The position numbers and the translations under genes are program-made. Positions 2,554 through 64,000 of a DNA stretch of 64,000 nucleotides are shown here, in pieces. The notes beneath the pieces were generated by a model. It saw nothing but the letters and a program-made list of their open reading frames with translations, was not told the origin of the DNA and ran no database searches. Position 1 is the first letter of the stretch, and every line of letters starts with the position of its first letter. Source of the stretch: a virus (taxonomy: Duplodnaviria; Heunggongvirae; Uroviricota; Caudoviricetes); IMG/VR virus record IMGVR_UViG_3300045988_146577; one strand, 5' to 3'.

Positions 2554-4662
2554 TCACTTTAAAATGATACGAGATAGTTCAGTAACTACAGATGAACCAA
2601 GACTATCAACGCTCGTTACCAGGGCATGATTTGCGTAAAATCTCTCCGGTGCATCAGTCATGATGCCAATTGCCATCAAATCAATGTCAGTCTGCGTTTC
2701 AATTTGCTTCGCAACCGAACGCAAATGAGCGTCAAAACCTCTCCCAACAGCCCACGGCTCGCCATCGCTCAGAACAAGCATGATCTTCCTGTCCTCCATG
2801 CGACCGGAAAATAACGATGCAAGGCTGGCTATGCTTTCACCATCCACGTTATTAAGAAGTGGGAATGTGTAGCCTACGCACCCCATACGTGAGCGAACTT
2901 CGCGAGAATTTGCTTTTTCATTCCAATTTTTGATGATAGGTAGCATTAAAGATTCAAAGCGAGAGAACTCATATTTGATAGCCTTAAGTTCTCCTGCTGC
3001 CATATGACTGCCAAATGTAGTGAAGCCGGTGATAATGTTGGGAACATTTATTCGATCAAGTGCATCGGCGATGGTATATGCACTTGCAAGAGCTAGTTTT
3101 ATCGTTTCGCCACTCATTGAACCCGATAAATCAATCACTTGTTGAACACAGGCGTTAACGGCTTTAGATTCTTCTTTTTTACGAAACACGCGATCATCAT
3201 TCATTGTTAATCTGTAGATACTTGAACCATGAATGCGCCCCCGACGCTGGCCAGGTATAAACTGAACTCTGTTTCTGCTTGCTATTGCACGTTCCAGGTC
3301 TTTTGCCAGCGTCGACGAAACACCTGACGAAAGGTGCTTTTCAATATATTTGTCGAAGAGTTGGTTGCCTTCAGGAACGATGCGATAACGGCTGATTGGA
3401 TATCCACCTAAATCAATATCGGAGAATGTTTTAATAAGCCGTTTGATATGGGCTTCTGCCTGATCAATCGAGCCGATGAAGTCGTATGAGCGATTGTATG
3501 GCCTGTATTCGCTTTTCGAGCTTTCTGTTAACTCGCTTTTAATCGTTTCGGATAGCGCATCTTCTGTCATGCCTCCGACTTCATCTTCCATGCTATCCAA
3601 CTCCTCTAAAGCCTCTTCCAGACTCATTTTTGACGGAGTTGGAATGTCTGAAGAGCCGTCTTCTGTCGTTTTTCTTTTTTCGTGGTCAGCGGTTAATGAT
3701 TCTGACGCCGCGTTATCAGAAGCATCAGAATCTGATACCGCTTTATCATTTTCTGTATCATCGAATATTGTTTCTGATGATTCAGGATTATCTGAATCAT
3801 CACTGTCGTTATTATCATGTTTGTGCTTACTATGTGACTCTGATTTAATAGATTTGTGATTATCTAACGATGAGGGTGTCTCATGATCTTCGTTGTCTTC
3901 ATTGTTTTCTCCAGAGGCATCCGTCTGGTCAGCGTCTGAAGGATCGGAAGTTTTTCCCGGAGCTGACTCCTTACCTTTGCTTTCACTTTCAGTGTCTTTG
4001 AGGATCTTAGCTATGGTCGCAGCCACCTTTACACAATCCTCGGTGCAAGACATGTTACGCACGGCCACATCGATACCATGTTCTTTTAATAATGAAATTG
4101 GTTTCTCAATGACAGGCCAATATTCATCCATGAAATCTACGAACGGTGCTTGGCCATCCCAGGCTCTTACAACCGGACAGAGAAAGAAGTTTAGAAAAAG
4201 CGCGCGCTGATCTTTGCCACAATAAGCAATAGCCTCTGAAGCCTTTGGTTTAAAGACTTTTTCGATTATAAGGCGCTGAGTTGCCATCAGATTACGTCTT
4301 GTTCCGTTAAAGACCTGACCCATTTTTCGCTCGATGAACACGTCTTCTAAGGCATTCCATAGCGACCAGGAAGGAACGCGTCCTTTTTCTCTCATTTTGT
4401 TGGACACACGAATATCGGTAAACAAAATGTGAGCAACCTCATGATCGAGAAATCCGCGCACAGCATTCATCAATGCCGGTGTTGCGTTATCCGGGATTGA
4501 TGGGATGTTTACGAGAATTGGCTCTCCATCATCGTTATAGCGTACATAAGCGTCGTCCCCTCGTTCTGCAACAGGGATGTTTTTACCTGAAAGGAGAGCG
4601 ACTACTCGTTTTACACTGTCACGGAAGTCCTGAACCTCTTTGATGGAACGTTTTTTAGACAT
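2554..4662 (-). CDS. von Willebrand factor A (vWA) domain protein with long acidic Ser/Asp/Glu-rich central region (CobT-like)
   Basis: C-terminal MIDAS-like motif VIDLSGSMSG; strongly acidic low-complexity middle; directly upstream of the AAA+ gene on same strand. Confidence 0.75.
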   Translation of the reverse strand: MSKKRSIKEVQDFRDSVKRVVALLSGKNIPVAERGDDAYVRYNDDGEPILVNIPSIPDNATPALMNAVRGFLDHEVAHILFTDIRVSNKMREKGRVPSWSLWNALEDVFIERKMGQVFNGTRRNLMATQRLIIEKVFKPKASEAIAYCGKDQRALFLNFFLCPVVRAWDGQAPFVDFMDEYWPVIEKPISLLKEHGIDVAVRNMSCTEDCVKVAATIAKILKDTESESKGKESAPGKTSDPSDADQTDASGENNEDNEDHETPSSLDNHKSIKSESHSKHKHDNNDSDDSDNPESSETIFDDTENDKAVSDSDASDNAASESLTADHEKRKTTEDGSSDIPTPSKMSLEEALEELDSMEDEVGGMTEDALSETIKSELTESSKSEYRPYNRSYDFIGSIDQAEAHIKRLIKTFSDIDLGGYPISRYRIVPEGNQLFDKYIEKHLSSGVSSTLAKDLERAIASRNRVQFIPGQRRGRIHGSSIYRLTMNDDRVFRKKEESKAVNACVQQVIDLSGSMSGETIKLALASAYTIADALDRINVPNIITGFTTFGSHMAAGELKAIKYEFSRFESLMLPIIKNWNEKANSREVRSRMGCVGYTFPLLNNVDGESIASLASLFSGRMEDRKIMLVLSDGEPWAVGRGFDAHLRSVAKQIETQTDIDLMAIGIMTDAPERFYANHALVTSVDSLGSSVVTELSRIILK

Positions 4663-55726: not shown

Positions 55727-56009
55727 ATTCCTATAAGGGTAATAACCGGCTAAGTCCGGTTATTATTTTACATGCCATTCGTTTAACACTCATTCAATTC
55801 TCCCCCGTATAAATATATATAAGGTCAAAAGCCGGAATTTATTATTTATTTAGGGAACACCTTCGACGATCTCGCTTTTATTTCTAGGGCTTTCATCCCT
55901 GCAAAAAACTTAAAAAAATACTTGCAATCTTTTTTCGCGTGTCGATAATTGGACTCATCGAAAGCGAAATTGCTAACGATAATTAAATTTTATACTAAGG
56001 ATTGAAATC

Positions 56010-56660
56010 ATGACTAACATTATCATTTCTAAAAAATCCATCATTGAAGCTGCTGCCATTGTATCCGACGAGCTGCGCGAAAAAGCAGATCTGGCAACTC
56101 AAACATATAACGAACATTATAAAAATGGTACGCACACAAAAGCAGACAAAGCAAATATGCAAGCTGCGACCACCAAACTTGCTTACTTCATCAACAACGT
56201 CGTAAACGCAGTAGAAGACGAAAAATTGTGCTCTGTTTTCTACTATGCGATCAAAGCAAGCAAACAAGCGCCAGAAGTATTTTTCCGTGATGCAATGACT
56301 AATAGTTATTCTCTGGAAAAACTGGTTTATCTGGTTAAATCCATTAAAGCTGGAAAGTGTGTTTATTCCGTCGCTGATATGTCCGGATCTCGTGTATTCG
56401 CATTAATCGATATGATTAACGACGAGATCGAGACGTTCACAAATGGCGCTGTTTTCGATTTAATGAATGAAGCGAAAAAAGCCAACGAAATAAAATTAGA
56501 CGCAGGATACACTCAAGCCAACCAGCTTATCAATCTTTGCGAACGTCTTGGACTTGTTGAGAAAGTCAAAGGAATGGGAAGCGCAAAAGCTGGTACGCAG
56601 CAATATCGCTTTATTAAAAATGATTTCTATAACTATCTGGCTGATGCTTTCAAAGCGTAA
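56010..56660 (+). CDS. hypothetical protein
   Basis: 216 aa ORF followed by terminator at 56674. Confidence 0.5.
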   Translation: MTNIIISKKSIIEAAAIVSDELREKADLATQTYNEHYKNGTHTKADKANMQAATTKLAYFINNVVNAVEDEKLCSVFYYAIKASKQAPEVFFRDAMTNSYSLEKLVYLVKSIKAGKCVYSVADMSGSRVFALIDMINDEIETFTNGAVFDLMNEAKKANEIKLDAGYTQANQLINLCERLGLVEKVKGMGSAKAGTQQYRFIKNDFYNYLADAFKA

Positions 56661-56673
56661 TTAATGGAATCTG

Positions 56674-56694
56674 GCGCCCACTATGGGCGCTTTT
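56674..56694 (+). terminator. rho-independent terminator
   Basis: GCGCCCACTATGGGCGC + TTTT. Confidence 0.7.
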
Positions 56695-56707
56695 AAGGAG
56701 CTTAATC

Positions 56708-56938
56708 ATGTTTATTCTTATCGCTGGCGTTAACGTGCGCAATGAATATTTTGTTAATCGCATCGCTGGGATCGCTGGTTACGCTGGGCGCGCAGTCGAG
56801 CTTATAGATGAAACGACGCGCAAAATTGACTTATTGAGCGACCAGGAGCGAAAAAAAGCAGACGTGAATGACGCTGATATATTTTTAATGTTAAAAGCGT
56901 TTGTAGAAATGGGATTTGAAATCAGTTTACATAAATAA
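56708..56938 (+). CDS. hypothetical small protein
   Basis: 76 aa ORF followed by identical terminator hairpin. Confidence 0.45.
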   Translation: MFILIAGVNVRNEYFVNRIAGIAGYAGRAVELIDETTRKIDLLSDQERKKADVNDADIFLMLKAFVEMGFEISLHK

Positions 56939-56944
56939 AATCGA

Positions 56945-56967
56945 GCGCCCACTATGGGCGCTTTTTT
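56945..56967 (+). terminator. rho-independent terminator (identical hairpin to 56674)
   Basis: GCGCCCACTATGGGCGC + TTTTTT. Confidence 0.7.
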
Positions 56968-56991
56968 CGTTTCCAATACTTCCACCATAAC

Positions 56992-57017
56992 GCGCCAATG
57001 ATGGCGCTTTTTTTATT
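56992..57017 (+). terminator. rho-independent terminator
   Basis: GCGCCAATGATGGCGC + TTTTTTT. Confidence 0.6.
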
Positions 57018-57424
57018 GTCTTTGACTCAAGCCAACAACATAAAAATAAGCGCCAAAATAACGCCATAGACGCGCTTTTATATCCTTACCAGTACATACC
57101 CATTACTTAGCGCATTAACGCGCTTAAATCGCGTTATATTGCGTTATGGTGTATGGTTAATCATTGGCTTTTATTCTTGCTATGTGATCCGCGTTTAATT
57201 GTCGGCGCGGATCGGCATTTTGTTTTGTTCCGTATCCGCTCGCGTATTATGTGCGCGTGATTTTTCACATAATCACACCACTTAATCACATATGTGATTA
57301 CGCTACGAAAGAAATCTGGATGTCTCAGGCGACGAAAGTCATCATAATTTTCCCCGCTCACCTGTCCGACAACCGCTGGTTGGATTCCACCAGCTTCCCG
57401 ATGTTTTTTCTATATAAAGGCGAA

Positions 57425-57545
57425 TGCAGCCGTTTCCCGAAAAAATCCTGGCCGTTTCCCGTCGGCTCATGAATACGTTCCTCGCCGTTTCTGAAAATTT
57501 CCCTGCGGCAGCTGGTGGCTATATAGAAAGGGCCGTTTCTGGCCC
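57425..57545. repeat. iteron cluster 1 (4 copies of GCCGTTTCC/TG-like motif)
   Basis: AGCCGTTTCCCG, GGCCGTTTCCCG, CGCCGTTTCTG, GGCCGTTTCTGG spaced 20-50 nt. Confidence 0.6.
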
Positions 57546-57554
57546 TCTTCTCAG

Positions 57555-58037
57555 TTACACGCCATCAAGGATGTGGATGCGGTTGCTTGCGTATACATTC
57601 AGCATAAAGTTAGCGCAAAACAGTTTCCATGTATCAACGCCAGCGGTATACGTAATGTTTTTGCATTTAATCGCATTGTTGGCGATCCGCATCCCCTGCG
57701 ATACTGCTTCATCGTCGGAAAATTTGAACGACGATTGAGTTTTAATCCAGACAGAAATCTGCGTAGCGAACTCAATCAGCTTGGACTGGCAGAATCGCCC
57801 GGAGCGCACCGGAAAGACGAACGTTCCGAATCCAGAATTTACCACATACGCTTTCTCAAATACCCGCGAGTAACGACGATTGCCAATGATGTCGCGTGCA
57901 ATAATGCATTTTTCTTGTGCTGACAGTTCTACCGTCTCATTGTCGCGCCATGCACCAAGTACTCGTTTTTCAATGTCAGAGAACGTTACAGCGATATTGC
58001 CATGTGCGGGTGCGTTTACAGTAGCGATAAAATTCAT
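57555..58037 (-). CDS. hypothetical protein
   Basis: 160 aa ORF; motif-A promoter-operator immediately upstream. Confidence 0.5.
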   Translation of the reverse strand: MNFIATVNAPAHGNIAVTFSDIEKRVLGAWRDNETVELSAQEKCIIARDIIGNRRYSRVFEKAYVVNSGFGTFVFPVRSGRFCQSKLIEFATQISVWIKTQSSFKFSDDEAVSQGMRIANNAIKCKNITYTAGVDTWKLFCANFMLNVYASNRIHILDGV

Positions 58038-58054
58038 GATTAATTCCTTATCGT

Positions 58055-58092
58055 AAATAACAAATTGTTTTCTTGTTGGTGTTAATTATCGT
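58055..58092 (-). promoter_or_regulatory. promoter-operator motif A (GATAAT -10-like box plus AACAAATTGTT palindrome)
   Basis: minus-strand CGATAATTAACACCAACAAGAAAACAATTTGTT just upstream of start at 58037. Confidence 0.55.
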
Positions 58093-58241
58093 TGTACGAA
58101 TAAGGCGTCAAAGTGGAAAGTTGCGGTAGCCGGACGGGAACAGGTGGGTTTGTCGGTTGCCTGGAGGTAAGAGGTTGGTGTTTTTAGCCTGCGGGAAACA
58201 GGATGGTCATTTAAGGCCACCAGCATTGGTGGCCTTACTCT

Positions 58242-58528
58242 TTAGTGGAGCAGACCGATGTCGATGGTATCCCCTGAATCATCCACACGGATCATCAGCA
58301 TGGCGAAGGCGTTTAGTGGATAGCTTGCGTGCCATTCAGGGAAGCGGTCATCTCGCATGAAGTCGGCAATGTCGTAAACGCAGCCCTCAAAGTGGAAGAA
58401 TCGCGTGCTTACCTGCTCGTCATATTCCACATGATCCATTTCTTGCTGTTCTGTTTCCGGCAAGTCCAGCCATGATTCAAGGAATACATTTTGTGCTTTA
58501 GGGGTAATGGTGAAATCAGTCATGAGCA
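58242..58528 (-). CDS. small acidic protein
   Basis: Start re-assigned to ATG near 58528 after SD GAGGAT (track start 58655 lies upstream of the promoter motif); about 95 aa. Confidence 0.5.
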
Positions 58529-58542
58529 TATCCTCACTGCGT

Positions 58543-58575
58543 AAACATATTGTTTTCTTGTTGGTGTAATTATCG
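58543..58575 (-). promoter_or_regulatory. promoter-operator motif A
   Basis: minus-strand TGCGATAATTACACCAACAAGAAAACAATATGTTT (extended -10-like TGnGATAAT). Confidence 0.55.
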
Positions 58576-58858
58576 CAGTGTAGATAAGGCATAAAAGAAG
58601 TTAATACAGGCTGAATACACAAGAAAGGTTCTGGAAGTTGATAGCCAGGTTTCAAACTAACCTTCGGTTATTAAAAGTCATTTAAGACCACCAATGCTGG
58701 TGGCCTTAATAATTATCGCCCGATTACGCTAAGGATCTTTTCCTCAACTGATTTGTTGTTGCGACTAAACTGCCTTGCGTATCTGATGACAGAAGAGGCG
58801 TTTTGCTTTCTGACCATCTCGACTCTTTCCTTCAGGCGTTTCTTGAAATCGCCCATAT

Positions 58859-59233
58859 TTACCACCAGGCGCAGAAGGTCAGTCTGTTATTGTGAAAGTC
58901 GTGGTTCTTAATCAGATCTTCCACAAGCTCTTTCAACTCCCCCACATCATGCCAGTAACCTTCATCGTACTCCTGACTGCCGAAGAAAAAACCTTCCCGG
59001 GTAGGCAAGTACTCTTCGCAATTACTTTCGTTTATGTGCATCAAATGAGCCTTCAGAAAACAAATGTCATTCATCGTTAATTCTAAAAGCTCACAATTTT
59101 CGACTTCACCTACGTTGCGCTCCATCCACCCAACGAGCGCATTGAACTTACGGAAGTAAGCAACCTGCTTTCTGGATGCCTCGTTATTCAGATCGTTTTT
59201 AGGCTGTGTCTCGATATAGATATCAAGTCCCAT
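58859..59233 (-). CDS. hypothetical protein
   Basis: Start re-assigned to ATG near 59233 after SD AAGGAAA; about 124 aa. Confidence 0.45.
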   Translation of the reverse strand: MGLDIYIETQPKNDLNNEASRKQVAYFRKFNALVGWMERNVGEVENCELLELTMNDICFLKAHLMHINESNCEEYLPTREGFFFGSQEYDEGYWHDVGELKELVEDLIKNHDFHNNRLTFCAWW

Positions 59234-59310
59234 GATGGTTTCCTTATTAAGTTGCTTCAGTGAAATCATTTTCACAAATCAGATAAGGCAGAAAACAAAT
59301 TGTTATCGGG

Positions 59311-59339
59311 CATAATAAAATGGCGCGGTTTGCGCGCCA
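59311..59339 (-). terminator. rho-independent terminator
   Basis: GGCGCG/CGCGCC hairpin followed by U-run on minus strand, just after the stop at 59351. Confidence 0.5.
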
Positions 59340-59350
59340 TTTAAAGAGGA

Positions 59351-59746
59351 TTAAGCGAATACGCTTTCAGGGATTAAGGTGTCGGCAGGAATGCCAGAGG
59401 TAATGCGCAGACCGTACTGGCCAATCCAGGTGGTGCTGGTGTTCAGGCTGGAGGCGAATACGGTGTTAACCATATTCATCATGGTTTCAAACACCTCTTC
59501 ATCAACCTGGCGGAAGTAGTTCTCGATTTTCAGCAGCAGAGGGTCAGTTGCATCGAGAATGGACTGGTATTGAGTCGCGTACTCGCCGCCGGAGGCATCA
59601 CCTTTACGCACGATCGTACTGGCCTGGACTTCGGCACCAGTTTCGGTGTTGTACGTAACAACGGTGATTTTTGCCACATTCTTACCTTCGGCGGTTTCAG
59701 AGGCATAGTAAACATCAACTGTCAGTTTTTCGCGTTTAACGGTCAT
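59351..59746 (-). CDS. hypothetical protein
   Basis: Start re-assigned to ATG near 59746 after SD GGAGAG; about 131 aa; TAAGTATGTACTTA palindrome upstream. Confidence 0.5.
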   Translation of the reverse strand: MTVKREKLTVDVYYASETAEGKNVAKITVVTYNTETGAEVQASTIVRKGDASGGEYATQYQSILDATDPLLLKIENYFRQVDEEVFETMMNMVNTVFASSLNTSTTWIGQYGLRITSGIPADTLIPESVFA

Positions 59747-59810
59747 TTCACTCTCCGTAGTGTTTTGGTTATTTTTATATTCTATGATCGTAAGTATGTA
59801 CTTACAATAC

Positions 59811-59837
59811 AAAAAAGCCCCGTAAGGATGGCGGGGC
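59811..59837 (-). terminator. rho-independent terminator
   Basis: GCCCCGCCATCCTTACGGGGC hairpin + U6 on minus strand. Confidence 0.65.
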
Positions 59838-59872
59838 TGTCGTACTGTCGACTAATTACCACTTGCACATTA

Positions 59873-60187
59873 TCAGGCTATTGCCATCACTGATGCTCTC
59901 TGAATTTCTTGCTGGGCCACGCGGTTAACTTCCATCAAAGCCAGTTCGAGCTGATGTTCCGGCCACATTCTTTGAAATGCCATCCAGCCTTTTCCACGCT
60001 GGCGACGAACATTCATTACATAACGAGTAAAGGTGTTTTTATCGAAAGACACCGCTGTTTCACGGAACAGACGAATAGAGGTTCCATTGGCAACGATGTC
60101 CAGCAAAGTTAATTGAGCAACCAGCGCAGGCTTCTCTTTTCTCTTCTGGTCTTTGTCCAGACCAAGAACCAATGATTTTTTCATCAC
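59873..60187 (-). CDS. small basic protein, possible DNA-binding regulator
   Basis: Start re-assigned to ATG near 60187 after SD GGAG; about 104 aa, Lys/Arg-rich. Confidence 0.45.
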   Translation of the reverse strand: MMKKSLVLGLDKDQKRKEKPALVAQLTLLDIVANGTSIRLFRETAVSFDKNTFTRYVMNVRRQRGKGWMAFQRMWPEHQLELALMEVNRVAQQEIQRASVMAIA

Positions 60188-60195
60188 AACTCCGT

Positions 60196-60211
60196 AAACA
60201 ACTTGTTTTCT
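60196..60211 (-). promoter_or_regulatory. operator motif A
   Basis: AAACAACTTGTTTTCT just upstream of start at 60187. Confidence 0.5.
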
Positions 60212-60337
60212 CAATGGCGTAAATAATACCAGTAAGAAAACGGCTACAAAGCATATTGATCAGGTGCATGAGCGATATGCAGGTTCTTCCCTGCGGCTAT
60301 AGAGAAATTAAGCCAGCAATGCTGGCTTTGGTTGGGA

Positions 60338-60667
60338 TTACTCGAATACTTCAAGAAACTCCTGAACGTCCCAATGCTGGACGAGGTGAAGATAGACCTT
60401 AGAAATCACGTCATTTTCGCTATCGCATGTGAAGTAGTACTTCTGGCTGCGGTTGTATGTGTCCACACAAAATTCGCTCATATCCATAAAGTCAGCATCT
60501 TCACCCATGTCGCAAATCATCAAAGCAGGTGCGTCATCACGAGTCATCAGCTCAAGCACCCACCGCGAATTGATCAGAGTGGAAGACCAACCTTCCAGCT
60601 CATAGAACTGGTCAAACTCTTTTTGAGTCAATTTCTTGATTTGGTTGATGTCGATATGTGCAAACAT
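60338..60667 (-). CDS. small acidic protein
   Basis: Start re-assigned to ATG near 60667 after SD AAGGA; about 109 aa; Asp/Glu-rich. Confidence 0.5.
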   Translation of the reverse strand: MFAHIDINQIKKLTQKEFDQFYELEGWSSTLINSRWVLELMTRDDAPALMICDMGEDADFMDMSEFCVDTYNRSQKYYFTCDSENDVISKVYLHLVQHWDVQEFLEVFE

Positions 60668-60679
60668 AAAGCAATCCTT

Positions 60680-60712
60680 AAACAACATGTTTTCTTGTTG
60701 GTGTTATTATCG
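60680..60712 (-). promoter_or_regulatory. promoter-operator motif A
   Basis: minus-strand TGCGATAATAACACCAACAAGAAAACATGTTGTTT directly upstream of SD and ATG. Confidence 0.55.
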
Positions 60713-60994
60713 CAATAACGCACAGGCGAAAAAGGATTTTATTCCGGTGAATGTGGTTTTGGCAGTGAGTTTTCAGGTTCAGTACCGAGTACACTTTTTA
60801 CATTATTCTGATTTAGTGGCCGAAGGTGGCTGGTGGGCAGAATAATCATCTCCCCGAAAACCTACTGAAATCGATTGTGACCCGTTGGCTGTCTGGCACA
60901 ATTACGCTGTAACTGGGCATTCAGAGGGAATCCAGCGGTAAGTAAGTTCGCCTGCACGTGAGCGCCTCTCTTCTTCCCGCACATTACAGGTGGG

Positions 60995-61185
60995 TAGCCG
61001 CAACTCTCCCTCTCGCTATACCGGTACGCCGCCGTTCCTGAACCGGCATCGAGCCTTTTCCCGAAATCCACACAGGCAACTCGACCGTTTCCCTGAAAAC
61101 CTCCAGCCGTTCCCCGAAGGCAACCCAGCCGTTTCTGTAGCGGGATGCAGCCTTTTCCCTGTATGGACCGAAGGCTGACCGTAGG
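60995..61185. repeat. iteron cluster 2 (6 copies of CCGTTTCC-like motif)
   Basis: CGCCGTTCCTG, AGCCTTTTCCCG, GACCGTTTCCCTG, AGCCGTTCCCCG, AGCCGTTTCTG, AGCCTTTTCCCTG at ~20-30 nt spacing. Confidence 0.6.
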
Positions 61186-61225
61186 GGTGTTACGGGGGGG
61201 TAAAATCAGGAGTTGAATAAATACG

Positions 61226-61248
61226 AAAAAGGAGGCGACACCCCTCCT
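61226..61248 (-). terminator. terminator-like hairpin ending the transcript of the GT-skewed region
   Basis: AGGAGG/CCTCCT stem with 7-nt loop followed by U5 on minus strand. Confidence 0.4.
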
Positions 61249-61249
61249 T

Positions 61250-62110
61250 CCCTCCCCACTTATACATACCTGTCTTGTTCGCTATACATGTTGTGTTTTC
61301 TTCGTGTTTTATCTGTCTCAACCTCTCTATAGGCGTTAATGCTCACTCCTTCCAGAACGTTCTATACGGCGACTATTTCTGTTGGTGAATTGGGTGTGTT
61401 GTTTTCTCTGTCGGTGTATGTAGTTTCATTAGTTTTGCGGTGGTTCTTCTATGGGGTGTTCTCGTCGTTTTGGTGATTGTTCTTCTCCGTGTATGGAGTA
61501 ATGACAGGTGGGCGATTGCTTTCGTTATTGTGTTTGAGTTGTTTGTCTGGAGTGTGAAAGGCTTTTGTAGTTATTCGTGTATTGGGTAATGGCGTTTCCC
61601 GTGATTGTTATGTTTCGTGTCTTTTGGGATTGAGAGAAACCTTGCGGTTACAGGCTTCGTTGGGGTTTCAGTGATTCTGATGTTTCTTCGCTGTTTGGGT
61701 AATGGCGTGTCGTGAGTATCGCGCGTATGGAAGTTTCGAATTGCCTGTGAAAGTTAGGTTGGTTGTCCGGTAGCCTGGGAAGAAGAGGTGGGTCTTTTCG
61801 GTAGCCTGCCATAAAGAGGTTGGTTGTTTTGGGAATGGCATATGTGTTATTTAGTTGTTTTGTTATGCCTGAAAATAAGTTGTTTATATGGTTATGTAAC
61901 GCAACGGGAACGATTTTGAGCGTGTGTTTTTGTTGGTAGTGTGTTGGGTCGTCTGTGGTGAAAATTGGACGCTGTGGCGCTGTCTGCTGCGTAGAATTAC
62001 GGGTATAAGCTGTGATGTGTGGAAACGTCAATTTTTTAGACCAAATCGGGTGAAAGCGTTGATGTTTCGTTGATCTGTTATTCAGTTGTTTTCTTGATTG
62101 TATAAACAAC
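61250..62110 (-). ncRNA. candidate long non-coding transcript from GT-skewed (plus strand) region; transcript would be CA-rich and G-poor
   Basis: ~860 bp with strong G+T skew on plus strand, internal short repeats, no credible ORF; promoter-like motif near 62080-62110 and terminator at 61226-61248, both minus-strand. Confidence 0.3.
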
Positions 62111-62219
62111 TATAACTTATTGATATTTAAGGATGTGATTGCGGGTATGGAAGGGGAGTAGTGGCGATCAACGGATTCTTATAGAAAAGAATCAAATTGT
62201 GACCGCCATTATCAATGTT

Positions 62220-62954
62220 TTACTTAGTTTTGTTTAGCAGAGAGAGAATTTCATCACTAATTTCACTCGCCTGTTTGATAGCCAATGCAGTTACCTCTTC
62301 TATGGTTGGTGACTGTTGATGCTCATGTTTGGTTTCAGTTATGACAATGTGTTCTTCACCTGAATTTGCGCATAGTGCCGCATTGACTATAAGGTTTGAG
62401 TAAGAATTTAGCAGAGCACTGTTGATAAACGCTTTCACGGTATTACTGTCTGCACCAAATACATCTTTTCTGACCGCTTCAGCCTCACAGCGAACCCCTG
62501 CAGCAACATCGTGAAGAACATGTATGGCCTTGGAGCTTGTTTGTTCACAGTACTCAATCATTATTGTCGAATTGTTCTGTTCAACAAATGATCTGATGCC
62601 TGACGATTCACCCATAGCATCGAAGGCAGCGTGACTCGCACTAGTAGAGATATCTTCATAGAGTTCTTCATCGCTATCTTTTTCTTCAGGTGTCGAGGTG
62701 TCTTCATCGTCGTAATAGATATTGCCTTTAATCAGTGTTTTGGATACTTGATATAAACAATAAGAGACAAGATTTAAGCATTGGATTTTAGCTGTATTGT
62801 CCTTTGTCGCCTCGCTCTTCAGTTCTTTCGCTTCTTCAGTAAGGCTGTTGATAAGACTTTGTATTTTTTCCAACGCGTTAGGTGCACACTCCGCGTTGTC
62901 CATAAAGAATTTATAACCAGTTCCAGGGATTTCTAAACTTTTCAACTTTTTCAT
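62220..62954 (-). CDS. hypothetical protein
   Basis: 244 aa ORF, acidic. Confidence 0.5.
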   Translation of the reverse strand: MKKLKSLEIPGTGYKFFMDNAECAPNALEKIQSLINSLTEEAKELKSEATKDNTAKIQCLNLVSYCLYQVSKTLIKGNIYYDDEDTSTPEEKDSDEELYEDISTSASHAAFDAMGESSGIRSFVEQNNSTIMIEYCEQTSSKAIHVLHDVAAGVRCEAEAVRKDVFGADSNTVKAFINSALLNSYSNLIVNAALCANSGEEHIVITETKHEHQQSPTIEEVTALAIKQASEISDEILSLLNKTK

Positions 62955-62999
62955 TTCTTTGATAATCCTAAAAACAAACTACCAATGCTTTAATATCTG

Positions 63000-63296
63000 T
63001 TACCAGTTCCAGCACTCAAGCCCTTCAACGACCGGTGCACCACAATCAAAATGTACAGAGTCAAAGCCTACATCAAGTACTTTCTGAATGTTAGCAATCG
63101 CGCCTTCGGATATACCATATCGACGCAAGTCGTCTTTCCAGACATCATCCTGTAACCCGGCGTGGACAATACAACCGCCATCAATTTGTGAAACCCAATC
63201 CAGCTCATTGCTTGCGATCATGAATCGGCGAGCATCTTCCTCTGATGTATGAGATGAGCTGATCAATGCCACCTGGTAGGCTTGGGTAATGTTCAA
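63000..63296 (-). CDS. hypothetical protein
   Basis: Start re-assigned to ATG near 63296 after SD GGAGTGG; about 98 aa; two motif-A copies upstream. Confidence 0.5.
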   Translation of the reverse strand: MNITQAYQVALISSSHTSEEDARRFMIASNELDWVSQIDGGCIVHAGLQDDVWKDDLRRYGISEGAIANIQKVLDVGFDSVHFDCGAPVVEGLECWNW

Positions 63297-63310
63297 CATT
63301 TCAACCACTC

Positions 63311-63376
63311 CAAAACAAGTTGTTTTCTTATGTGGTTTATTATCTCCATCAACAAAAGGCAGAAAACAAATTGTTT
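63311..63376 (-). promoter_or_regulatory. two copies of operator motif A
   Basis: AAAACAAGTTGTTTTCTT and AGAAAACAAATTGTTTT. Confidence 0.5.
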
Positions 63377-63460
63377 TAGGTACTGTGTAAATCAGAAGGG
63401 ATTGTGTCTATATGAAAATGCCCGGCGTGTTGCCGGGCATTGCGAAGAGAGGTTGTTTAA

Positions 63461-64000
63461 TTACTTAACCTGGTGGCCAGGTTTAGCACCAGCATCCGGG
63501 CTTAACAGGAAGATATCTTTCCCACCGGGGCCAGCAGCCATCACCATACCTTCGGAGATACCGAAGCGCATTTTACGCGGAGCCAGGTTAGCCACCATAA
63601 TGGTGTGACGACCAATCAGTGCCTGTGGGTCTGGATAAGCAGAACGGATGCCTGAGAAGACATTGCGTTTTTCACCACCTAGATCCAGCGTCAGACGCAG
63701 CAGTTTGTCAGAGCCTTCAACAAACTCCGCGTTTTCAATCAGCGCCACGCGCAGGTCAACTTTGGCGAAGTCATCAAAGGTGATGGTTTCCTGAATCGGA
63801 TCGTCTGCCAGCGGGCCAGTAACTGGCGCGGCAGTGGCTTTCACTTCTTCTTTAGAGGCTTCCACCAGTGCTTCAACCTGCTTCATGTCGATGCGGTTAT
63901 ACAGTGCTTTGAACGGATTAACTTTGTGCGCCAGCAGCGGTTGCTGGATGCCATCCCAGGTCAGTTCCGTATTGAGGAATGCTTCTGCACGCTCGGTCAG
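63461..64000 (-). CDS. metG: methionyl-tRNA synthetase, C-terminal part (partial; 5' end beyond window)
   Basis: Translation ...[30 protein letters not shown]...[19 protein letters not shown]...PGHQVK matches enterobacterial MetG C-terminal tRNA-binding domain from memory; GCCCGGCAACACGCCGGGC hairpin just downstream. Confidence 0.85.

Follow-up and report, generated by a model that had tools for sequence, protein, structure and literature searches.

An SSU5/Cyrano-type phage-plasmid, represented here by a stretch of 64,000 nucleotides (hereafter "the window"), carries on its minus strand an element whose physical properties match those of a Rho-dependent termination tract, and which is unusual for such a tract in its size, its conservation and its internal organisation. 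Comparison of its copies indicates that we are dealing with an undescribed, widely distributed and selected non-coding module, whose function we infer. Our tentative reading, which we hold with less than even confidence, is that the region is a Rho-type transcription barrier shielding the iterons next to it and the early genes beyond.

A conserved element at the border of the cargo genes

Over the 1.55 kb that surround the finding, identity is 98% to Escherichia phage Cyrano (the pLF82 phage-plasmid) and 91-96% to other SSU5-type phage-plasmids. The region is present in 240 of 5426 complete E. coli genomes, every copy lying on a plasmid of ~105-120 kb, and a search in distant mode finds it at ~68-74% identity on 835 plasmids of Klebsiella, Escherichia, Enterobacter, Salmonella, Citrobacter, Cronobacter and other genera, SSU5 itself included. 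A scan of a genome collection with one conserved block returned four matches only and no additional lineages, and H64, considered for a time as a plasmid without the region, carries it. In a Klebsiella IncFIB/IncU plasmid of 237 kb (L005), a fragment of the element is enclosed by IS copies. In every record examined the element is without annotation: the NCBI pipeline places no feature at all in 60688-62220, while other annotators have called differing ORFs, on differing strands, in the relatives. Our search of the literature found nothing on this region. A reading made from the sequence only had delimited it as 61250-62110; a region of this kind is indeed there, but the conserved element is larger, running from 62207 to ~61226 and then on into iterons at 61032-61161.

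The minus strand is the sense strand of almost all genes, both neighbours of the finding included. The gene just upstream (in the sense of the minus strand) varies between plasmids and is often defence or moron cargo, and in most annotated relatives it is directed into the element; the Klebsiella lineage, with its cargo oriented divergently, still keeps the element. The element sits, in other words, at the border between a hot spot of exchangeable cargo and a conserved block of early genes. A full-length host-like metG (methionyl-tRNA synthetase) and apbC/mrp adjoin this hot spot (63461-64000 and beyond; L002 8765-12056), and elsewhere the phage-plasmid has three tRNA genes, nrdAB, thyA, dfrA51 and rnhA. 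Two independent IS3-family insertions (in L185, which is pECAZ155_2, at 1808-2970, and in L007 at 1748-2961) have hit this part of the plasmid, one within the C/A-rich body of the element and the other between its hairpin and the iterons; since the plasmids with these insertions in or next to the region survive, the element is dispensable for plasmid maintenance.

Composition, coding capacity and selection

On the plus strand, 61250-62110 contains A 0.173, C 0.145, G 0.285 and T 0.397 (G+T 0.682), and G+T reaches up to 0.716 in 61380-62100. For a sliding segment of 861 nt the maximum is 0.693, at 61289, the mean and SD of the window being 0.503 and 0.029, and the rest of the 64 kb stays well below that level. 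The extreme G+T richness remarked upon in the sequence-only reading is thus genuine (0.68-0.72, more than 6 SD over the window mean), and it recurs, at 0.65-0.68 over 0.8-0.95 kb, in all lineages fetched. Read as RNA, the minus strand has a median C/G of 2.4 over the region, against 0.89 for the window. C/G exceeds 1.5 in 86% of 78-nt windows over the region, the runs above this value covering 62232-62054 (179 nt) and 62115-61347 (769 nt), and the longest such run elsewhere in the window is 219 nt. The stretch from 61347 to 62115 (minus strand), with C/G > 1.5 in every 78-nt window, is the body of the element: a C/A-rich, G-poor, structure-poor and untranslated tract of the rut type. Its minus-strand RNA has a minimum free energy of -0.155 kcal/nt (z = -0.63), and the RNAalifold consensus shows only a few 3-bp helices in it. 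The expectation that a minus-strand RNA would be CA-rich and G-poor, with the composition that Rho prefers, has therefore held up; like a rut tract, the region is C-rich and G-poor over at least 70-80 nt, has little structure and is untranslated. Two other candidates were rejected, namely a structured RNA (there is excess stability on neither strand, and there are almost no consensus helices) and curved DNA (A-tract phasing at 10.5 bp is absent). As to whether composition is under selection, the substitution spectrum was uninformative. Short C-rich, G-poor tracts also lie downstream of other genes in the window.

As regards coding capacity, our alignment of 27 non-redundant copies of the region (A2) contains no ORF, on either strand, that is common to the lineages. 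The ends of ORFs differ even among E. coli copies that are 92-97% identical, indels of 1, 2 and 11 nt are frequent and shift the frame, and 3-nt periodicity is absent in the region. Zero matches were found for the internal ORFs in Pfam and PHROG, whereas each of the flanking genes has a PHROG match; a scan of 56000-64000 with the covariance models of Rfam 15 (E <= 1) gave no match. The doubts already expressed about the ORF at 61648-62109 were well founded, as its frame is not conserved and no Pfam or PHROG family matches it. Identity between lineages is nevertheless 0.57-0.70 in the body, versus 0.37-0.48 at third codon positions of the neighbouring genes, and, being far above this third-position level, it points to a constraint about equal to that of first codon positions. 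The region is thus shown both to be non-coding and to be under purifying selection.

Arrangement of the parts

Followed along the minus strand, the element opens with a two-tier stem-loop at 62163-62207 (outer stem GGCGGUCA/UGAUCGCC, inner stem GAUUCUU/AAGAAUC, loop UUUCUAUAAG; RNAalifold helix at columns 67-74/104-111), which begins ~10 nt or less from the stop codon of the variable upstream gene. It folds lineage by lineage, at -13 to -21 kcal/mol, its inner stem covaries between lineages, and its loop motif has a single occurrence in the window. Further on, a promoter had been proposed at 62080-62110. A consensus scan reports nothing there, and what the alignment contains is a cassette-like TACAAT with a AGAAAACAA half-operator (62086-62101, minus strand), the TACAAT itself (62096-62101) being confined to the E. 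coli lineage. To judge from the 27 sequences, in which it is nearly invariant, the better conserved promoter-like element is TTGACG-N17-TTATAC at 62003-62031 (minus strand); there is one such site in the window, for 0.02 expected by chance, and it is flanked by a local cluster of CGTTGA/TCAACG motifs. Its -10 reads TTATAC/TATACC and, without the consensus A-11/T-7, fails the rule of the scan, so that any promoter activity at this place is putative.

An operator-like palindrome, AAACAAnTTGTTT, has an internal copy at 61872-61885 (minus strand; alignment columns 389-404, nearly invariant), which is degenerate in this window and perfect in the SSU5 lineage, and a motif of the same type also stands within the promoter cassettes of neighbouring genes. 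These cassettes (TG-n-GATAAT, ~10 nt, a AGAAAACAAnnTGTTT palindrome, then a Shine-Dalgarno) are repeated upstream of many minus-strand genes, for example at 60681-60714, 60198-60230, 58058-58095 and 63313-63345. AGAAAACAA occurs 16 times for 1.4 expected, and its cassette probably serves a global phage regulator as operator.

Two short internal repeats had been noticed in the body. Both are real and each lies inside a larger family, GGGTAATGGCGT in a 28-nt unit present three times and CGGTAGCCTG in a 31-nt tandem unit. The first family (the A repeats, GCCATTACyCnATAyRCGGAGAAGAAC, 61483-61711, minus strand) has copies at 61684-61711, 61571-61598 and 61483-61510, with a degenerate one at 61832-61840; relatives have 4-6 copies in a single orientation, and on the whole plasmid A repeats are found at this locus only. 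The second (the B repeats, CAGGCTACCGAAAAGACCCACCTCTTnnnnn, 61747-61830, minus strand) has 2-3 copies, the number varying between plasmids. A and B repeats are the best conserved columns of the alignment and keep one orientation throughout; the spacing of the repeats is variable (41-145 nt). The whole body is bracketed by CTTATAC (62003-62009) and its inverted partner GTATAAG (61259-61265, minus strand), which would give seven invariant pairs; one compensatory change from C-G to U-A, a single event in the Klebsiella lineage, is weak evidence that the pairing is a real feature. An invertible segment or a MITE, which a 7-bp inverted repeat might have suggested, was rejected on the same orientation in all of the 27 or more relatives and on there being this one compensatory event only.

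A second array of B repeats is found at 58107-58212 (minus strand), after a gene-end hairpin and before the promoter cassette of the gene at 57555-58037 (blastn, E = 2.6e-8). It is conserved in other lineages, is likewise C-rich and G-poor, and occupies -45 to -110 of the promoter with a spacing of 30-31 bp. A condensed B-like unit (GGCTACCCACCTGTA) lies at 60990-61003, at the far end of the first iteron array.

At its 3' end the element has a polypurine G-cluster (GGGGAGGGAAGGAGGGG), which makes up the 5' arm of a hairpin, and then a U-run (61226-61257, minus strand; terminator-like). That a minus-strand hairpin with a U-run closes the region, as had been claimed, is confirmed by the terminator scan (at 61226-61252, 10 pairs and then the U-run UUUUUCGUAUUUAUU), and the GC-rich hairpin with its immediate U-run is of the kind seen in intrinsic terminators. 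The hairpin is kept in all lineages via G-C/G-U changes, and conservation of the U-run does not extend beyond the E. coli lineage. A conserved AT-rich box of 13 nt separates the hairpin from the iterons. Iteron array 1 (61032-61161, minus strand; 5-6 copies of YCRGGGAAAMGG, not of the RepA type) lies directly downstream, and array 2, of the same family, at 57420-57520 (minus strand), 3.6 kb from array 1 and in the same orientation. Array 2 (GGGAAACGG-type) is conserved in all lineages (SSU5, Klebsiella, Cronobacter) and is flanked by outward-facing Chi sites (57511-57518 on the plus strand and 57387-57394 on the minus strand); seven small genes with no assigned function stand between the two arrays. 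There are thus two units with the order B array, X, hairpin, iterons; the place of X is taken in one by an ordinary gene of 483 nt and in the other by the C/A-rich body, and neither blastn nor tblastx detects any similarity between body and gene. A scan of viral contigs with the iteron pattern was too unspecific for use.

Chi (GCTGGTGG) has 16 sites in the 64 kb, on both strands, for 1.3 expected, a density close to that of the E. coli chromosome. After the gene at 58242-58655 there is a hairpin (GGCCACCAATGCTGGTGGCC, 58215-58234) whose stem consists of a Chi site, and this arrangement is conserved in relatives. A further candidate for a control or origin region is the AT-rich, non-coding stretch at 56940-57420, where plus- and minus-strand transcription converge and where there are several hairpins, palindromes (ATCACATATGTGAT) and TGTGATTA repeats.

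A divergent relative is instructive in this respect. The contig L078 was reached through a neighbouring protein at only 51% identity, and BLAST finds no similarity between it and the body, yet its order of parts is that of the window. In its boundary stem-loop the whole stem is replaced by GUCAACCUCUC/GAGAGGUUGAU and the loop UUUCUAUAAG is kept; TTGACA-N17-TTATAC has its spacing unchanged; and the body, of 670 nt, has A+C 0.68, -0.154 kcal/nt and variant A and B repeats. In place of the short polypurine hairpin there is a G-rich zone of 240 nt (3090-3330; G 0.33, ten runs of at least 3 G), the strand composition flipping abruptly where the C-rich body meets it, and the downstream end has an AT box, GGGAAACGG iterons and a Chi site. 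That composition and layout outlast sequence similarity argues that the strand-specific, structure-free character would itself be selected.

A proposed transcription barrier and its rivals

Rho loads on untranslated, unstructured RNA of ~80 nt or more in which C exceeds G. In the barrier that we tentatively propose, the minus strand would be transcribed into a C/A-rich, G-poor, near structure-free RNA of ~0.8-0.95 kb, which would amount to an exceptionally long Rho-loading (rut-like) tract. A polymerase arriving from lysogenically expressed cargo, or from the weak or repressed promoter of the element itself, would be released by Rho; the upstream mRNA would be trimmed back to the 5' stem-loop; a polymerase escaping Rho would be stopped by the 3' G-cluster hairpin/terminator; and the iteron array and the repressed early-gene cluster would thereby be kept free of read-through.

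The available expression data come from the LF82 study, in which RNA-seq was re-analysed on the Cyrano genome, with values given as log2(FPKM+5) (PMC9928086, S1 table); they are gene-level data, from lysogen samples only, and are read here without regard to strand. CYRAN_103, which corresponds to 61755-62110 of the window (the Cyrano lysogen being 98% identical), is at 2.32, that is, zero, in both LB samples and at 2.7-4.3 in other conditions, or at most ~14 FPKM, whereas CYRAN_102, ending 110 nt upstream, is at 5.6-9.2, or 45-590 FPKM (PMC9928086). At this resolution, RNA does not accumulate over the region in lysogens, though polymerase probably reaches its boundary. The sequence-only reading had suggested a decoy or regulatory RNA, and this finds no support in a region at 0-14 FPKM lying just downstream of 45-590 FPKM; such values mean that there is no abundant decoy RNA during lysogeny.

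It is the combination of the Rho-loading composition, the boundary stem-loop, this RNA-seq cliff and the 3' barrier that makes a transcription firewall the best supported explanation; we infer from it that Rho is the agent and insulation the selected function. A miniature of the same design is present at 58036-58254 (gene stop, hairpin, C-rich B-repeat tract, next promoter). Known Rho-dependent terminators and rut sites (lambda tR1, or the intergenic hairpin-plus-rut type) likewise have an untranslated, C-rich, G-poor and structure-poor RNA downstream of a gene, a stable stem-loop where the trimmed 3' ends would lie, and, to judge from the gene-level values in the case of the element, a sharp fall of RNA in vivo. 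However, the element is ~10 times longer than a typical rut, its sequence is conserved across genera, and it includes two repeat families, a promoter-like element and its own 3' hairpin/terminator. Several observations speak against the barrier. The drop in RNA-seq takes place within ~110 nt of the upstream stop, so that a short rut would suffice; ~800 nt of conserved sequence, with A and B repeats and a palindrome, is more than bulk composition would require; a promoter-like element that is conserved is odd inside a pure terminator; and the barrier leaves unexplained why Klebsiella plasmids with divergent cargo keep the element.

The main rival, which we regard as unlikely, is that a repressed lytic non-coding transcript, directed toward iteron array 1, activates or primes a second (lytic) origin. 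TTGACR-N17-TTATAC would fire on induction, and either transcription itself or an R-loop, started at the 3' G-cluster/polypurine tract and processed by an RNase HI of the phage-plasmid's own, would open or prime this origin. The promoter-like element, conserved at a fixed spacing with operator-like motifs around it, and the silence of the region in lysogens are both compatible with such a transcript, but the -10 of the promoter-like element is non-consensus and a hairpin/terminator stands before the iterons. The G-poor body, with G clusters on the non-template strand in its last ~40-240 nt, then the AT-rich box and iterons unlike those of RepA, would also fit, as would the plasmid-encoded RNase HI, 5'-3' exonuclease, DnaE, DnaB-like helicase and ligase, and RNA-based origins have a precedent in extrachromosomal mycobacteriophage prophages (PMC7157519). 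On the other hand, the iterons do not require this RNA, given that what stands before array 2 is an ordinary protein gene, no initiator gene for them was found among the family matches of the neighbouring genes, and IS3 insertions that split or separate the parts are tolerated (in plasmids whose lytic competence may or may not be intact). No conserved DnaA box is seen on visual inspection of the alignment.

The location of the known replicon also weighs against this rival, as the cumulative GC skew of the whole plasmid has its extremes at repA only; GC skew was accordingly rejected as an origin indicator here. With its own 21-bp iterons (ATCCACTATAGAGAG), repA is ~33 kb from the finding, and a link of the element to the RepA replicon was rejected on this distance and on the difference between the iterons; an 11-mer resemblance to the latter (CTATAGAGAGG) is at chance level and restricted to the E. 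coli lineage. An origin-associated region had been put forward at the outset as the alternative, in view of the adjacent iterons: these are real, and the idea survives only for a non-RepA origin, for example a lytic one.

The element may also be compared with RNA-primed or transcription-activated origins (ColE1 RNA II, T4 oriF/oriG, lambda pR-ori, mycobacteriophage prophages, PMC7157519). The likeness is that of a 0.5-0.8 kb non-coding unit pointing at a repeat/AT-rich region, with G clusters at the 3' end of the RNA and an RNase H encoded by the phage-plasmid itself. The differences are that the RNA is here unstructured instead of highly folded, that no antisense regulator was found, that the region is silent in the prophage state, and that the plasmid replicates from a distant RepA origin, the iterons next to the element being a putative origin. 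Of the features of the ColE1 type, the 3' G cluster and a plasmid-borne rnhA are present and an antisense promoter is absent by promoter scan.

Rather less probable, we think, is a platform of double-stranded DNA, in which the A and B repeats, the CGTTGA cluster and the palindromes would bind phage regulators or partition-like proteins and form a nucleoprotein complex with both iteron arrays, the skew being a by-product of many sites in the same orientation. The single orientation of the repeats and their being the best conserved columns could be read in this way, as could the position of the second B array (-45 to -110 of a promoter, 30-31 bp spacing) and the two iteron arrays, whose distance of 3.6 kb suggests looping. 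However, the skew is also present in non-repeat sequence and persists in L078, where the repeats are changed; the repeats vary in number and spacing; helical periodicity is absent; and no binding protein is known. As for the flanking arrays, clusters of one repeat family that lie kilobases apart in the same orientation are also a feature of split iteron systems (P4 ori/crr; R6K alpha/beta/gamma). No cognate binding protein is known in the present case, and the likeness covers the neighbours of the skewed body, not the body itself.

We find it quite improbable that the element works in trans, as an abundant C/A-rich RNA of the lytic phase that would titrate Rho or another RNA-binding protein. 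Such an RNA would be unstructured, with repeated single-stranded motifs and a composition ideal for Rho, but no RNA is seen in lysogens (0-14 FPKM) and no Rfam family matches. Rho moreover translocates along its substrates and releases them, which makes stoichiometric titration unlikely; it is more plausibly at work here as a terminator than as a titrated factor. Sponge RNAs (CsrB/RsmZ, CrcZ) and ToxI do share with the element short repeated motifs in a non-coding RNA, such as its tandem 31-nt unit, but here there is no enrichment of GGA or A-rich motifs, no presentation of the motifs in hairpin loops and no expression in lysogens. A sponge for CsrA or Hfq was rejected since GGA (5 observed for 5.7 expected), (ARN)n and AANAANAA (z from -0.9 to +1.1 for ARN and AANAANAA) show no enrichment, and a type III antitoxin array because there are just 2-3 units of 31 nt and no ToxN-like family among the downstream genes.

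We give equally little credence to a second origin that would be primed by an R-loop and gated by Rho. During lysogeny the leader would load Rho, and the transcript would be stripped before an R-loop could form at the G-cluster/polypurine tract; on induction, a de-repressed promoter or a phage anti-Rho or antitermination activity would let the RNA reach the G cluster, where plasmid RNase HI would make of the stable hybrid a primer from which lytic replication starts. The complex would be organised by both iteron arrays together with the A and B repeats. Finally, a protein-coding gene, a pseudogene or neutral filler with a purely mutational skew is highly improbable and effectively excluded: a 153-aa ORF is present and annotators have called various ORFs in relatives, but these ORFs lie on different strands and vary in their ends among near-identical relatives, indels shift the frame, periodicity and family matches are lacking, and conservation is well over the level of synonymous sites.

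Clinical E. coli, Klebsiella, Salmonella and Enterobacter commonly harbour phage-plasmids of the SSU5 type, whose cargo includes resistance and defence genes. If the element is indeed a portable, orientation-specific firewall of the Rho type, arbitrary cargo could be swapped in and expressed while the lytic genes stay asleep, and the element would be a useful insulator part. If it gives rise instead to the RNA of a lytic origin, it would locate the start of lytic replication in this family of phage-plasmids.
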